Shown one piece after another: positions 2,190 through 18,907 of a stretch of 38,533 nucleotides of DNA. Origin of the DNA: a virus; the UHGV virus genome UHGV-0139758; one strand, 5' to 3'. The first letter of the stretch is position 1; each line of letters begins with the position of its first letter. The notes under the pieces were generated by a model, which had not been told where the DNA came from, did no database searches, and worked only from the letters and a program-made list of their open reading frames with translations. The position numbers were made by a program, and so were the translations under genes.

Positions 2190-2915
2190 TATAATTACAC
2201 GTCCGATTACATATAGATCATCTAATTCGTCAGCGTAAAAATCAGGATATAATCGATTTCCATCTTCATCTAATTCGGTATTTAGAGACACCAAACGTAG
2301 CCTAGTTCCTTCTAGGTACATTTTTTTAATAAATGCTTCGCCATTTATTTCAATTGCCCCAATCTGTCCATTATAGATATCCATAGTTTCTTTTACAAAA
2401 ACAATTTCACCATCTTGAAAAGTAGGGTACATACTGTCTCCACAAACTTGGAATGCTAAATCATACTGCGAAGGAGCTGAGCCTACTTCAACAATTTCTA
2501 TACAACCTTTGTCATTAAATGCACCTCCACCAGCTGATAATCTGCCTGAAAGTTCTATAGTAGTTGTATTTGTTGGCATGAAAGCAATAACTTTATTATT
2601 AGATGTATTTCTTTTTTGCTCTTCTAATTGATGCTCGGCATACCTACATACTTTCTGCTTTCTTGTAGTATCTAACTTATTATAGATAGCTTCTATCGAA
2701 GAAAAATCATTCGAAGTGTTCCAGCCCATCAATTCTTCGGGAGTTGTTTTTAGAATTTTAGCAATAGTTATCAATCTCTCTGTAGGTAGTTTTTCGATAT
2801 CGCCTTTTTCATATCTAAAAATTGTTGAACGTGATACACCAAGTTCATTAGCGATTTTATCAGCGCTAATATTCAATTCTTTTCTTCTTAATTTCATGCG
2901 TTCGCCTACATTCAT
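2187..2915 (-). CDS. cI: CI-like prophage repressor (XRE HTH plus S24 LexA-like peptidase domain)
   Basis: Start placed at the internal ATG (MNVGERMKL...), which has a GGAGGTG RBS at a 5-nt spacer; the upstream extension in the track has no RBS. N-terminal HTH: LGVSRSTIFRYEKG. C-terminal autoproteolysis domain has the Ser motif GDSMYPTF and a downstream Lys (FIKKMY). Confidence 0.85.
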   Translation of the reverse strand: MNVGERMKLRRKELNISADKIANELGVSRSTIFRYEKGDIEKLPTERLITIAKILKTTPEELMGWNTSNDFSSIEAIYNKLDTTRKQKVCRYAEHQLEEQKRNTSNNKVIAFMPTNTTTIELSGRLSAGGGAFNDKGCIEIVEVGSAPSQYDLAFQVCGDSMYPTFQDGEIVFVKETMDIYNGQIGAIEINGEAFIKKMYLEGTRLRLVSLNTELDEDGNRLYPDFYADELDDLYVIGRVII

Positions 2916-2934: not shown

Positions 2935-3047
2935 ATTATATATTGCATGTTGCATAATTGCAACAAAAATAATTGCATAAATGCAACTTTTTTGTTGACT
3001 GATAACATTCAAGGTGGTATATTACAAATATCAAGTCGCATAAATGC
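2935..3047. promoter_or_regulatory. Divergent cI/cro promoter region with three palindromic operators
   Basis: Rightward promoter: -35 TTGACT (2995-3000), 17-nt spacer, -10 TATATT (3018-3023). Leftward promoter on the minus strand: -35 TTGCAA (reverse complement of 2958-2963), 17 nt, -10 TATAAT (reverse complement of 2935-2940). Operators: TTGCATgTTGCATAATTGCAA (2943-2963), TTGCATAAATGCAA (2973-2986, a perfect 14-bp palindrome), and GCATAAATGC (3038-3047, downstream of the rightward -10). Confidence 0.7.
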
Positions 3048-3069
3048 GATTTTAGAGAGAGGTGTTATA

Positions 3070-3333
3070 ATGATTAATGTTGCTAAATTAAAAGGCCTAA
3101 TTGTTGAAAGAGGAACGACCCAACAAGCTGTAGCTGATTCTATTGGTATAGACAGAAGTACTTTCTACAGAAAAATGAAAAAAGGTGGAGATTTTTCTAT
3201 AGAAGAGGCAAAAGGCATTAAAGAACAGATTCCGTTATCAGATGCAGAAGCGATAGAAATTTTTTTTGGTAAAGAAGTCGCATTTACGCTACAAAGAAAA
3301 GGTTTAGGGGTGGGAACTGATGACCACGTTTGA
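3070..3333 (+). CDS. cro: Cro-like HTH (XRE family) transcriptional regulator
   Basis: Start at the ATG at 3070 (MINVAKLKGL...), with an AGAGAGAGG RBS upstream. The HTH is QQAVADSIGIDRSTFYRKMK. It is transcribed divergently from cI. Confidence 0.7.
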   Translation: MINVAKLKGLIVERGTTQQAVADSIGIDRSTFYRKMKKGGDFSIEEAKGIKEQIPLSDAEAIEIFFGKEVAFTLQRKGLGVGTDDHV

Positions 3334-15318: not shown

Positions 15319-15707
15319 CTTATTGCAACTTTTTTACAATAACTAGCCGATTTTTTGCAAACAAAAAGCCAGCCGACCAATGGCTGACTAATGTGGTAGT
15401 TAGCACTTTTCCCAAGTAAAGTGCTAATAGTGCCAACAAATAAGGTTGACATTGTGTCTCTGGTGGAGACAGGAACTATCGATAACTGTTTTCCGCCAGT
15501 TATCATAGAAAAGGAGAAATTTATTTCAGAAATAAAATCCCCAAGAAAGTTAATATGATTATATCATGAGTAAATGTATTTGAAAATACTATCTCATAGT
15601 ACGTATTGTAAAAAGTTTATTTAGTAGAAAATAAAAAAAGCCAGATTGCTCCGGCTGTGAGAAATATTTTCGACATAGTTATTATACCACAAAAGGAGCG
15701 ATTCCAC

Positions 15708-16124
15708 TTGATTCAATTGCTAAAAGAAGTAGATTTTCGACAAACAAAAGCGAATGCCAGAAATGTGTTGAAGAATTTTAGACGTTTAGAGCGAATAGCT
15801 GGTCGCTCTTTGATAGATTTAAAATCACCAATTATTACAGATATGCCTAAAAGCCAAAGTCATGGGAACAAAGCAGAAGATGCGCTAGTACAATTAGCAG
15901 ATGCAGAAGCAGAAAGAGACGCAATTTTATCTGGGCTTATGGCATTAAGCCTAACTAGCAGACAAATTTTGCACTATAGTTTCTGTGTGCAGGACCATTA
16001 CTCTAATTACAAGATTGCTAGAGAAGTCGGCTATTCCGAAAGAAGTATTCAAAGAATGAAATCAGAAGCTTTGATTGAATTCGCAGAAGCTTACCGCAAT
16101 GGAAAAATAATTGCCTATAAATAA
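15708..16124 (+). CDS. arpU: ArpU-family phage late-gene transcriptional regulator (sigma-region-4-like)
   Basis: The N-terminal RQTKANARNVLKNFRRLERIAG and the C-terminal HTH (YKIAREVGYSERSIQRMKSEAL) fit the ArpU family. Start probably at the TTG at 15708, 9 nt after an AAAGGAG RBS. The track's 15657 extension (MRNIFDIVII...) has no RBS. Confidence 0.65.
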   Translation: MIQLLKEVDFRQTKANARNVLKNFRRLERIAGRSLIDLKSPIITDMPKSQSHGNKAEDALVQLADAEAERDAILSGLMALSLTSRQILHYSFCVQDHYSNYKIAREVGYSERSIQRMKSEALIEFAEAYRNGKIIAYK

Positions 16125-16128
16125 AATT

Positions 16129-16157
16129 TTGGCGGTTTTTTGGCGGAAAGTTGGCGG
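16129..16157. repeat. Three direct TTGGCGG repeats at an 11-bp period immediately after the arpU stop
   Basis: TTGGCGG at 16129, 16140 and 16151, flanked by T-runs. Confidence 0.6.
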
Positions 16158-16189
16158 TTTTTATACGAATTTGAGTGCTAATATAGTAA

Positions 16190-16263
16190 CATCGAAAGTC
16201 AAAGAAATGGACACATTACACAACACTTTCTGGTTTAGTCACCGTTTGATTTGACTTTCGATG
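16190..16263. repeat. Perfect 14-bp inverted repeat with a 46-nt loop (CATCGAAAGTCAAA / TTTGACTTTCGATG)
   Basis: The arms are 16190-16203 and 16250-16263. They lie inside a ~190-nt untranslated stretch between arpU and a terminator. Confidence 0.6.
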
Positions 16264-16297
16264 GTCACTTGCAGACATACGTTCTCAATAAAATGAA

Positions 16298-16327
16298 GTG
16301 AGGTGAATAACCTCCTCTTTTTTCTAC
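16298..16327 (+). terminator. Intrinsic terminator
   Basis: GAGG-tgaataa-CCTC stem followed by CTCTTTTTTTC. Confidence 0.5.
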
Positions 16328-16661: not shown

Positions 16662-16696
16662 AATAAGCAGTCCGTTAAAAGACTGCTTATAAATAA

Positions 16697-16834
16697 TTAT
16701 TTTCTATACTTTGTATTATCACATCTAGGACATGGCGGCAGTGTATCTGTTTTGTCATCTAATACAACTTGCTGACCGCAATTAGTACAAGTATAGGTGC
16801 CTTTGCCTGGCTTTTCACCTGTAGAATAAGTCAT
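16697..16834 (-). CDS. Zinc-ribbon mini-protein (45 aa; CxxC...CxxC, FmdB-like)
   Basis: Not in the ORF track. Translation: MTYSTGEKPGKGTYTCTNCGQQVVLDDKTDTLPPCPRCDNTKYRK. Strong GGAGGTG RBS at a 6-nt spacer. It lies on the same strand as, and downstream of, the small-RNA array. Confidence 0.6.
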   Translation of the reverse strand: MTYSTGEKPGKGTYTCTNCGQQVVLDDKTDTLPPCPRCDNTKYRK

Positions 16835-16900
16835 GTTATCACCTCCTTACTTGAAGTATACACCTTAGAATATAATTAACAATAGGAAGTGACATTTTGA

Positions 16901-16973
16901 TGGAATATAGCTCAGTTGGTAGAGCATACGACTGTTAATCGTAGGATCATGAGTTCGAGTCTCGTTATTCCAG
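16901..16973 (+). tRNA. tRNA-Asn (anticodon GTT), phage-encoded
   Basis: Cloverleaf read by eye. Acceptor TGGAATA/TATTCCA (7 bp). D-arm GCTC-AGTTGGTA-GAGC. Anticodon stem TACGA/TCGTA with loop CTGTTAA (U33, GTT, A37). Variable loop GGATC. T-arm ATGAG-TTCGAGT-CTCGT. Discriminator G, no encoded CCA. Confidence 0.8.
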
Positions 16974-17069
16974 TAAGTAGCTATGCTACTTAAATAAAAA
17001 AATCGTCAATAAGTCAAATGTAACTACCTTTACGATCAGATGACGGTTAAGATTTTCCTTCCTATCTAA

Positions 17070-17100
17070 GGCTGCACTTTCACCGTGCAGTCTTTTTTTA
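17070..17100 (+). terminator. Intrinsic terminator downstream of tRNA-Asn
   Basis: CTGCAC-tttcacc-GTGCAG stem followed by TCTTTTTTTA. Confidence 0.7.
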
Positions 17101-17103
17101 TAC

Positions 17104-17215
17104 GTAAAAAAACCACTAGACTATGGAATCTAGTGGATAGGTAGCAGACTATATTACAAAAAGATGGGTTTTCTAGGTGTAAATAACTGTTTCAGCATTT
17201 AAGGAGTTGCTACCC
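17104..17215 (-). ncRNA. Small RNA gene A of a four-copy tandem array (~110 nt)
   Basis: Minus-strand extended -10 TGCTATAAT (reverse complement of 17222-17230). The 5' region is GGGUAGCAACUCCUU. The 3' end is UGCUACCUAU plus the terminator CCACUAGA-uuccauag-UCUAGUGG plus U7 (plus-strand hairpin 17113-17136, A-run 17106-17112). The GGUAGCA/UGCUACC terminal helix is at plus 17208-17214 and 17140-17146. Confidence 0.55.
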
Positions 17216-17328
17216 AAAAGCATTATAGCAAATTAATAGTGATAGACATTATCCAATTTATGTAAGAAATGACATATTTAGTACATAAAATTAATTAAGA
17301 ATGTCTCTTTTAGTATGTAAAAAACCGC

Positions 17329-17425
17329 TAATATCGGAAAATTAGCGGATAGGCAGTTATAGTAAGACTTGTTGATAGAATTTTAAATCGCAAAATCTAA
17401 ATTCATCAAGAAGGAATTCCTGCCT
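17329..17425 (-). ncRNA. Small RNA gene B of the array (diverged copy)
   Basis: Minus-strand -10 TGTTAGAAT (reverse complement of 17432-17440). 5' region CAGGCAGGAAUUCCUUC. The 3' end is CUGCCUAU plus CCGCUAAU-uuuccgau-AUUAGCGG plus U6. The terminal helix has covaried to AGGCAG/CUGCCU (plus 17420-17424 and 17363-17367). Confidence 0.5.
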
Positions 17426-17540
17426 GTAAAAATTCTAACAAATATTAAAAAAATTGTAAAACATTTATGTGTTTGTTTTTTTTACATTAATTGCAATCGA
17501 GCTTCAGATGATGAGTTAGTAACTATGTTTACTGAACAAC

Positions 17541-17640
17541 AAAAAAACCACCAGTGAAATTAATCATGGGTGGTTAGGTAGCTAGTACGATATGAGGAAT
17601 TTCATGTGCAAGAAATTTTCTAAGGTATGTCGCTACCCGT
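17541..17640 (-). ncRNA. Small RNA gene C of the array
   Basis: Minus-strand -35 AAGACA, 17 nt, extended -10 TGCTATAAT (reverse complement of 17647-17655). 5' region GGGUAGCGACAUACCUUAG. The 3' end is GCUACCUAA plus CCACCCA...UGGUGG plus U7. The terminal helix GGUAGC/GCUACC is at plus 17632-17637 and 17577-17582. Confidence 0.55.
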
Positions 17641-17688
17641 AAATAAATTATAGCAAATCATTCATTAATTGTCTTGTCTGATGCATAT

Positions 17689-17797
17689 AAAAACCGCTAG
17701 TGGTGACATACTAGCGGTTAGGTAGCAAATTATGTGTCTTTTCATTGAATTATGAATTACATAAGGTGTTGATTAAAAATAAAAGGAGTTGCTACCT
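17689..17797 (-). ncRNA. Small RNA gene D of the array
   Basis: Minus-strand extended -10 TGTTATAAT (reverse complement of 17804-17812). 5' region UUAGGUAGCAACUCCUUUUAUUU. The 3' end is UGCUACCUAA plus CCGCUAGU-augucacc-ACUAGCGG plus U5. The 10-bp terminal helix UUAGGUAGCA/UGCUACCUAA is at plus 17790-17796 and 17721-17727. Confidence 0.55.
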
Positions 17798-17877
17798 AAT
17801 AAAATTATAACAAATAAGAATGAAGAATAAAAGAGATTGCCTTGATGGCTTCTTTTTTTGTTTGGAGGGAATGAAGG

Positions 17878-18102
17878 ATGGATAATTATTGGTACATATC
17901 TCTGAACCACCATTATCCGAAACCCATGAAAAACCAACATAAACGGGTAGTAATGTCGGTGCAGATTAAGAAAGACTATTCCATCATTGAGATGACACGA
18001 GAAGCTACACCACAAGAAATTGACTATTGCAAGTTGCTATATTGCGGTCATGGGTGTTGGAATGACAAGCATGTACAAGAGAATATAAGTAAATACAGAT
18101 GA
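17878..18102 (+). CDS. Small hypothetical protein (74 aa) immediately upstream of terS
   Basis: GGAGGGAATGAAGG RBS. His/Cys-containing sequence (HHYPKPMKNQHKR ... CKLLYCGHGCW). It is not a canonical HNH. Confidence 0.5.
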   Translation: MDNYWYISLNHHYPKPMKNQHKRVVMSVQIKKDYSIIEMTREATPQEIDYCKLLYCGHGCWNDKHVQENISKYR

Positions 18103-18142
18103 ATTACAAAACGAACACAGATGGCGAGGTGGTGTAAAATGT

Positions 18143-18907
18143 ATGTCTAGAGCTAGAAATCCAAATAGAGAAAAGGCAAAACATCTTTGGTTAGAATCTG
18201 AAGGAACAAAGAAATTAAAAGATATCGCAATTGAATTAGGTGTTACAGATTCCACTATTAGAAAATGGAAATCTCAAGATAAGTGGGACACTACAATGAA
18301 ACGGAGCGCTCCGATTGAAACGGAACGTTACGATACGCTTAAAGGCAATAAAAATGCCCAAGGGAATAAAGGCGGTTCGCCCCCTAAGGGGAATAAGAAC
18401 GCAGTTAAACACGGAATTTTTGCTAAGTGGATGCCGGAAGAGACAATAGAAATAATGGAGACCGTTTCCCAATCAGAACCGGCAGATATTCTTTGGAATA
18501 ACATTATGATTCAATATACAGCCATTATCCGATCACAACAGATTATGTACGTCAATGATGTCGGAGATATCTCAAAAGAGGAGTCGGGTTGGTCATCTGG
18601 CGAAAGTGGAAGCAGTTCTACTATGCAAGTTCAATACGCGTGGGATAAACAAGCGAACTTTTTAGCCGCCCAATCTCGAGCAATGGGAACACTATCAAAT
18701 TTAATTAAACAATTTGTAGCTATCGCAGACGAAGCCGATGAACGAAGAGCAAAATTAAGCTTGATAACTGCGAAGATGGAAAAAACACAAGCAGAAGCGA
18801 AAATACTTACGAATCAGGCCGATAAGTTAACTGCTGGAGGCAAAGCGAACGAATTGTTAGAAGCTTTGCTCAACGTTAAATCACGAGGTGTGAACAATGA
18901 CAATTAA
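18143..18907 (+). CDS. terS: Terminase small subunit
   Basis: N-terminal HTH: KKLKDIAIELGVTDSTIRKWKSQDKWD. It precedes and overlaps terL. Confidence 0.8.
   Translation: MSRARNPNREKAKHLWLESEGTKKLKDIAIELGVTDSTIRKWKSQDKWDTTMKRSAPIETERYDTLKGNKNAQGNKGGSPPKGNKNAVKHGIFAKWMPEETIEIMETVSQSEPADILWNNIMIQYTAIIRSQQIMYVNDVGDISKEESGWSSGESGSSSTMQVQYAWDKQANFLAAQSRAMGTLSNLIKQFVAIADEADERRAKLSLITAKMEKTQAEAKILTNQADKLTAGGKANELLEALLNVKSRGVNNDN

Follow-up and report, generated by a model that had tools for sequence, protein, structure and literature searches.

Four tandem small RNA genes of a phage-specific family between arpU and terS of an Enterococcus faecalis temperate phage

The virus genome UHGV-0139758 (38,533 nucleotides; this whole stretch is referred to as the window) raises the question of what is encoded by the approximately 740 bp between its transfer RNA (tRNA) gene for Asn and its terminase genes. 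A sequence-only reading had found no open reading frame (ORF) there and had proposed four small RNA (sRNA) genes on the minus strand. The window represents a temperate siphophage or prophage of Enterococcus faecalis, and among the phages of the collection only those of E. faecalis (phiFL1A/B/C, IME197, Efs 1-1-1 and SEsuP-1) were related to the region in DNA. E. faecalis is a major hospital pathogen whose prophages shape colonisation and gene transfer, and hardly anything is known of the RNA regulators of its phages. The stretch was found to hold four sRNA genes of a phage-specific family, an assignment that is well supported; homologues of this family have already been detected in strain V583.

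Four paralogous minus-strand units, A to D, were confirmed by reading the sequence, by a terminator scan and by folding, each with its own promoter and terminator and at the place proposed (Table 1). Every unit consists, in this order, of an extended -10 promoter, the 5' arm of a closing helix (P1), a pyrimidine-rich motif, a divergent body, the 3' arm of P1 and an intrinsic terminator. The sequence TGnTAnAAT stands 7 nt ahead of P1 in 4/4 units, and a consensus promoter scan added -35-like hexamers for B (TTTACA) and C (AAGACA). The promoter of unit A is also conserved at the comparison loci L104, L107 and L108, and the promoter block of unit D at L085, L089, L104 and L107. P1 is a helix of 6-8 bp that joins the 5' and 3' ends and starts 0-3 nt from the predicted transcription start. 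Both of its sides are changed in unit B relative to A, C and D, from U-A to C-G. The bodies of about 55-60 nt are without similarity between units, and the 3' arm of P1 is followed by two or three bases, a GC-rich hairpin and a run of U5-7. Spacing from unit to unit is 146-222 nt.

Folding, which had been suggested as a check, placed the closing helix and the terminator in the minimum-energy structure of all four units; relative to dinucleotide shuffles, the z-scores ranged from -3.9 to -5.7. Terminator-like sites numbered 7 in 3 kb (1.6 +/- 1.1 in shuffles) and included the minus-strand terminators of A, B and D. The terminator of unit C has a longer loop and was seen in the fold instead of the terminator scan; its stem is complementary as had been claimed, but reads AACCACC/GGUGGUU plus an inner UGA/UCA instead of CCACCCA/UGGUGG. 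No ORF of at least 50 aa is present inside 17100-17770, which bears out the earlier statement, and the ORFs of 20-26 aa in the array are without a Shine-Dalgarno (SD) sequence, none being common to several units. One of 26 aa (MKRHIICYLTASMSPLAVFICIRQDN, 17745-17665, minus strand) begins in the body of unit D and runs through the terminator; it has no SD, is not conserved and is probably spurious. A BLAST comparison (word size 7) of the units with the window yielded noise for the most part.

Table 1. Positions of the array, its units and the surrounding features in the window (z, fold z-score; bits and E, covariance-model match).
Feature	Position	Strand	Basis or details
sRNA array, four units	17106-17830	-	
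Unit D promoter, extended -10 TGTTATAAT	17812-17804	-	read directly
Unit D sRNA, ~109 nt	17689..17797	-	fold, covariance model, terminator scan; z = -5.7; 80.5 bits, E = 1e-12
Unit D P1 5' arm AGGUAGCA	17797-17790	-	
Unit D motif CUCCUUUU	17788-17781	-	
Unit D P1 3' arm UGCUACCU	17727-17720	-	
Unit D terminator AACCGCUAGU/ACUAGCGGUU	17719-17692	-	U-run to 17689
Unit C promoter, AAGACA, 17-nt spacer, TG-extended TATAAT	17647..17675	-	promoter scan and sequence
Unit C extended -10 TGCTATAAT	17655-17647	-	
Unit C sRNA, ~100 nt	17541..17640	-	fold, covariance model; z = -4.95; 54 bits, E = 1.9e-7
Unit C P1 5' arm GGGUAGC	17638-17632	-	
Unit C motif UACCUU	17627-17622	-	
Unit C P1 3' arm GCUACCU	17582-17576	-	
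Unit C terminator AACCACC...GGUGGUU	17575-17546	-	U-run to 17541
Unit B promoter, TTTACA, 17-nt spacer, TG-extended TAGAAT	17432..17460	-	promoter scan and sequence
Unit B extended -10 TGTTAGAAT	17440-17432	-	
Unit B sRNA, ~107 nt	17319..17425	-	fold, covariance model, terminator scan; z = -4.1; 75.1 bits, E = 1.2e-11
Unit B P1 5' arm AGGCAG	17425-17420	-	
Unit B motif UUCCUUC	17416-17410	-	
Unit B P1 3' arm CUGCCU	17356-17351	-	
Unit B terminator CCGCUAAU/AUUAGCGG	17348-17325	-	U-run to 17319
Unit A promoter, extended -10 TGCTATAAT	17230-17222	-	read directly
Unit A sRNA, ~110 nt	17106..17215	-	fold, covariance model, terminator scan; z = -3.9; 86.1 bits, E = 8e-14
Unit A P1 5' arm GGGUAGC	17215-17209	-	
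Unit A motif CUCCUU	17206-17201	-	
Unit A P1 3' arm GCUACCU	17145-17139	-	
Unit A terminator CCACUAGA/UCUAGUGG	17136-17113	-	U-run 17112-17106
ArpU-type late activator	15657/15708-16124	+	PHROG 'transcriptional activator'
ORF of 87-109 aa	between arpU and zinc-ribbon ORF		
Zinc-ribbon ORF, 45 aa, CxxC...CxxC	16697-16834	-	SD AAGGAGG
tRNA-Asn	16901-16973	+	
Plus-strand terminator	17068-17094	+	directly before array; consensus scan
ORF of 74 aa, phrog_1202	17878-18102		function unassigned
TerS (TerL follows)	18143-18907		

For comparison, 80 loci around relatives of TerS and 80 around relatives of ArpU were taken from IMG/VR, and a covariance model (R1) was built from 15 representative units. 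Covariation was assessed on 46 distinct sequences that had been fitted to the model, many rows of the alignment being close relatives: 96% of cells were paired, changes on both sides were found in 12/16 pairs, none of 500 shuffles reached the observed covariation values, and sliding of the 3' partner lowered pairing to 22-54%. P1 was kept paired through the variants GGUAGC/GCUACC, GGGUAG/CUACCC, GACAGC/GCUGUC, AGGCAGA/UCUGCCU, AACAGG/CCUGUU and GGCAG/CUGCC. RNAalifold, run independently, recovered P1 and the terminator with compensatory changes in 11/16 pairs and lengthened P1 by an A-U/G-U/G-C pair. By this comparison of sequences, P1 and the terminator covary and constitute a conserved RNA secondary structure, so that the covariation first noticed within the four copies extends across many homologues. 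Pairs of the G-U type outnumbered those of the A-C type (22 vs 9), and this excess favours the minus-strand RNA as the molecule that is folded. Each unit shows the marks of a stand-alone sRNA gene, namely its own promoter, an intrinsic terminator without a conserved ORF, and covarying structure.

Homologues of the window units are transcribed in the uninduced V583 lysogen, whose units of the L140 and L155 types are matched by the same covariance model. Differential RNA sequencing of V583 recorded three orphan primary transcription start sites (TSSs) in prophage pp4 between EF2020 and EF2022, at 1949783, 1949936 (height 10458) and 1950111 (PMC7724050 Table S1), on the strand opposite the phage genes (PMC7724050). 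The 50-mers upstream of these sites are exactly the promoters of L155-, L119/L140- and L140-type units, and the starts fall between 3 nt before P1 and 1 nt inside P1. Michaux et al. 2020 do not include these RNAs among their listed sRNAs (PMC7724050). In a strand-specific tiling array (Shioya et al. 2011), two EF2021_EF2022 probes gave strong signals in many conditions (PMC3166299 Table S3); both probes are reverse complements of V583 units. Innocenti et al. 2015 describe 'Ref93A,B' as confirmed by the table of Shioya et al. and Ref94 as antisense to ef2025 (PMC4408782). Judging from that text and the position of Ref94, Ref93A,B are probably the V583 EF2021-EF2022 units. A further primary TSS of V583 in phage sense (1949984, minus strand, height 788) lies inside a homologous unit (unit 2, equivalent to the body of L140 5958-6061); an RNA started there would be antisense to the adjacent unit.

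The V583 units belong to the same family as those of the window and have P1, the CU-rich motif, the terminator, the strand and the position between arpU and terS in common with them; they differ in being other paralogues with different bodies in another prophage, which have only been catalogued as transcripts. The mapped starts and array signals of these homologues support the proposal of independent minus-strand sRNA genes. By analogy, the resident prophage probably expresses the four copies of the window at a time when its other genes are silent. To speak of a new prophage sRNA array, as the sequence-only reading did, was an overstatement, since V583 homologues were detected in transcriptome studies of 2011-2020, but the units have never been characterised or described as a family. 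Three orphan TSSs and two anonymous array signals thereby become a testable gene family.

The same data bear on the possibility that the repeats are sites at the DNA level and not RNA genes, for instance sites bound by the small terminase close to pac, or scars left by recombination. Their position just upstream of terS and the inverted repeats would suit such sites. Promoter, terminator and U-tract are nevertheless all on one strand, the changes preserve complementarity and not a fixed sequence, G-U pairs exceed A-C pairs, and the primary TSSs and probe signals of the V583 homologues contradict it; we regard this explanation as scarcely credible.

How widely the family is distributed was assessed in the IMG/VR loci. 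A regular expression for the 3' arm gave 89 matches in 65 loci, all on the strand opposite arpU/terS and representing 36-47 distinct sequences with about ten body types, and a strict pattern was present in 58 IMG/VR contigs. The covariance model gave 25 + 98 matches with E<1e-3 in approximately 100 loci of E. faecalis temperate phages, again all on the minus strand relative to arpU/terS. The units stand in tandem, 1-4 per phage, 0.6-3 kb downstream of arpU and always between arpU and terS, and their neighbours differ between phages, with no conserved adjoining protein gene. The family occurs in most phages with this ArpU type, in variable copy number, and is transcribed in the model lysogen V583. 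Phages whose TerS is only 45-64% identical are mostly without units, and the ArpU loci examined from four further Enterococcus species and one Lacticaseibacillus contained none. As far as sampled, the family is confined to E. faecalis temperate siphophages.

A distant phage, L033 (TerS 55% identical, other ArpU type), carries arpU, a tRNA gene, a plus-strand terminator, two or three minus-strand units and terS. Its tRNA gene (2783-2855, plus strand) and plus-strand terminator lie directly before the units (2986-3285, minus strand), and a long ORF-free stretch at about 2430-2780, between arpU and the tRNA gene, had no Rfam family match. Some copies of the family have been rearranged. The terminator loop is inverted between near-identical units (GACTATGGGTTC at L125 5169-5283 and L129 6828-6961 vs GAACCCATAGTC at L126 5112-5226), which suggests template switching or recombination between the stem arms. 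At L087 1996-2106 and L101 6219-6356, the unit promoter and/or 5' arm is swapped for unrelated sequence, and these copies have apparently decayed or recombined.

The earlier statement that no described family matches was upheld by an Rfam search of the window units (16700-18200) and V583-type units, which, both at the gathering cut-off and with E up to 10, returned tRNAs and otherwise nothing but noise below threshold. The arpU-terS region was without annotation in all GenBank phage records examined, and no description of the family, its array organisation or its conserved parts was found in the literature, where a locus-tag search gave unrelated papers. Ref84 was discarded as an identity, the match reaching 25.8 bits against a cut-off of 52 and covering the terminator alone. 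A type I toxin-antitoxin RNA was rejected for lack of a conserved small ORF in or beside the units. The units were likewise not assigned to type III (ToxI-like) systems, as each has its own promoter and terminator at a spacing of 146-222 nt and the neighbours are the tRNA, the phrog_1202 ORF and TerS. A retron non-coding RNA would share the helix between 5' and 3' ends; the flanking ORFs are short or TerS/TerL, however, and none resembled a reverse transcriptase in a PHROG scan of the neighbours.

Several known systems resemble the array without being identical to it. LhrC1-5 of Listeria monocytogenes are sibling sRNAs, four of them in tandem, whose CU-rich single-stranded motifs pair with SD regions. 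Like the window units, they are several tandem paralogues of about 100 nt with their own promoter and terminator each; unlike them, they are chromosomal, controlled by LisRK and equipped with UCCC loop motifs, whereas the window units have a single motif beside the helix that closes the 5' and 3' ends. LhrC (RF00616) gave no match with E up to 10 in 16700-18200 or in V583-type units. The streptococcal cia-dependent csRNAs are also multi-copy RNAs, about 90-150 nt long, whose stem-loops are separated by anti-SD-like CCUCCU stretches, and differ in that the window units are phage-borne; identity with them (RF02379) was dismissed, there being no Rfam match and no CiaR box TTTAAG-N5-TTTAAG in 17000-17900 even at 2 mismatches. 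SprD/SprX (S. aureus) and DicF, AsxR/AgvB and svsR (E. coli) share the moron type with own promoter and terminator and act from resident prophages on host or phage messenger RNAs (mRNAs), but they are unrelated in sequence, mostly single-copy and in no case part of an arpU-terS array.

What the RNAs do is suggested by their most constant unpaired part. The motif reads AACUCCUUUU in 25/46 sequences, the other versions being ACUCUUUC, AUUCCUU, AUACCUU, AUCAUCCU, ACACCCU and CCACUUUAUCC, and a pyrimidine-rich motif is kept in all 15 sequence variants while the bodies have nothing in common. The motif is predicted to be unpaired with a mean probability of 0.73, compared with 0.01 for P1 and 0.56 for the body. 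CUCCUUU is identical to the anti-SD core of 16S rRNA. The CCUU motif of the sequence-only reading is hence present, conserved and predicted to be accessible, but lies 2-4 nt past the 5' arm and not 5-10 nt. With a promoter and a terminator for each unit and a plus-strand terminator directly ahead of the array, the units have the appearance of self-contained morons; and the conserved P1 with an adjacent single-stranded CUCCUU(U) equal to the anti-SD core favours pairing in trans with ribosome-binding sites (RBSs), in the manner of LhrC, csRNAs and RsaE.

We therefore favour stand-alone, trans-acting sRNAs of the moron type that pair with purine-rich RBSs, a reading to which we assign an even probability. 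Four sRNAs of about 100-110 nt would be made, each from its own sigma-A-type extended -10 promoter and ending at its own terminator, in the direction opposite to the early and late genes, within the variable 'moron' zone that separates arpU from terS. In Firmicutes, a paired 5' end blocks RNase J, and P1 would shield the 5' end from attack by a 5'-exonuclease. P1 would also set off the adjoining single-stranded motif, mostly A-A-CUCCUU(U), which together with adjacent unit-specific bases may pair with purine-rich RBSs of phage or host mRNAs and reduce their translation. Several copies with different bodies would then have different target preferences.

The same features could alternatively belong to decoys, in which P1 and the CU-rich strand bind a protein of the host or the phage (for example a nuclease, a regulator that binds RNA, or a sensor of a defence system) or mimic the 3' tail of 16S rRNA, and act by titration. 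High promoter strength in V583 (TSS height 10458), multiple copies per phage, conservation of the ends alone while bodies drift, and the identity of CUCCUUU with the anti-SD core are in keeping with titration; no neighbouring protein gene is conserved, however, and the variation of the motif (UACCUU, AUCCU, ACCCU, CUCUUUC) suits degenerate pairing better than a specific protein site, so that decoys appear improbable to us.

Among candidate targets of pairing in trans, the RBS of the integrase gene (AAAGGAGUUGCUA, 1237-1225, minus strand) is a perfect complement over 12-13 nt to the 5' end of units A and D. Its context is GAAUAAAGGAGUUGCUAGAUAUG / AAUAAAGGAGUUGCUAGAUAUG (1242-1218, minus strand), the matching 5' end of units A and D being UAGCAACUCCUUU, and it is the sole GGAGYYGC in RBS context within this phage. 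Shuffled queries reached at least 12 nt in a translation-initiation region in 0.9% of trials. The 13-nt match suggests the integrase as a possible target. When the whole phage was scanned for duplex energy with the 34-nt 5' ends as queries, many imperfect duplexes of equal quality were obtained. Within the window, AAAGGAG precedes int and arpU only, and the arpU RBS matches the motif over only 8 (+3) nt.

These matches also allow a narrower form of the favoured reading, in which the units are dedicated regulators of integrase and/or arpU translation. It draws on the restriction of upstream AAAGGAG to int and arpU among the window genes, on the 13-nt match of units A and D, on the arpU RBS block ACCACAAAAGGAGCGAUUYCACUUG, which is kept in 80/80 ArpU loci and also in phiFL1A, and on the units accompanying this ArpU type, with none in ArpU loci of other Enterococcus species. 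Non-conservation of the integrase match, the shortness of the arpU match and the L033 units, which share the AACUCCUUU motif although the L033 arpU RBS is GAAGGGA, speak against it, and we see only a small probability for it. On the same grounds the integrase was set aside as a general target, and the arpU RBS as a covarying one.

A number of points weigh against RBS pairing by trans-acting sRNAs in general. We infer the pairing, the targets and the role of P1 from sequence, and the close relationship of many aligned rows qualifies the covariation. The integrase site is no energy outlier among all 40-nt phage windows with a 34-nt 5'-end query; its match is not conserved, the integrase of phiFL1A being of the serine type, with GAGGUG as its RBS and lacking a complement; no more than 4 IMG/VR contigs carry the integrase RBS of the window, and in one of these the unit 5' end mismatches; and the UAGC of the presumed seed sits inside P1. 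About 8 genes per phage have an AAGGAG SD, and a 6-7 nt anti-SD match alone is therefore unspecific. To our knowledge E. faecalis is without Hfq, and no chaperone is implied.

Pairing might also serve a diversifying multi-copy RNA 'toolkit' of the resident prophage that controls genes of the lysogeny switch or keeps out related phages that try to enter. RBSs of the AAAGGAG type, for example those of integrase and ArpU, would be docking sites for the shared anti-SD motif, fast-evolving bodies would provide specificity, and copy number and body repertoire would set which phages or genes are silenced; we hold this to be distinctly unlikely. If the RNAs do tune integrase, late-gene activation or superinfection, they would add a new layer of control to enterococcal lysogeny, and if they act on host mRNAs, they would be lysogenic-conversion factors made of RNA.

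The surroundings of the array bear on the main rival explanation, a role in cis. Right after the arpU stop there are three TTGGCGG direct repeats of the ArpU/Ltr box type, 11 nt apart (16129-16157), which are also present in phiFL1A and match the ArpU-binding repeats described for phiFL2A (PMC3753634). The late promoter thus seems to lie upstream of terS by about 1.95 kb, and the morons and terminators in this interval would make read-through or antitermination necessary. The four convergent promoters and abundant, fully complementary sRNAs could then form a cis-acting antisense barrier that collides with leaky late transcripts in lysogens or marks them for cleavage, and so sets a threshold for expression of terminase and lysis genes. 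With the ArpU boxes right after arpU, read-through from the late promoter would run across the array in sense; in every case the array is antisense and lies between arpU and terS, and the phage-sense TSS inside unit 2 of V583 indicates that sense/antisense pairs occur. The constant orientation is inherited within one homologous family, however, and is not independent evidence. In both phages examined, the array comes directly after a plus-strand terminator (in phiFL1A at 15684-15704), and little sense RNA should arrive in lysogens; nor would interference alone need a covarying P1 or a conserved accessible motif amid diverging bodies. We consider a barrier of this kind rather unlikely.

Short RNAs against the main direction of transcription are known from P22 sar, lambda OOP/anti-Q and phage P1/P7 c4, which limit lytic functions, c4 by masking an RBS. 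They differ in having defined targets and in overlapping, or originating from, the operon they act on, whereas the window units are insulated by terminators on both sides. A direct block on read-through into the late operon, as had been suggested, is not supported, because the unit hairpins have no U-tract on the plus strand; the separate plus-strand terminator already lies upstream.

Some further features of the region were noted. The start of arpU is probably TTG 15708 (SD AAAGGAG, 9-nt spacer, 138 aa; RBS block 15692-15710, plus strand), the alternative GTG 15657 being without an SD. Downstream of the TTGGCGG boxes, within 16158-16320 (plus strand), there is a -10-like hexamer TATAGT, followed by a conserved leader with an inverted repeat TCGAAAGTCAAA/TTTGACTTTCGA and a terminator-like hairpin (16300-16314); the block is nearly identical in phiFL1A (L164 14373-14558). 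The zinc-ribbon ORF is accompanied, at 16663-16690 and 16882-16855, by its own promoter-like site and a hairpin that possibly terminates both strands, and constitutes a further opposite-strand moron between arpU and the tRNA gene.

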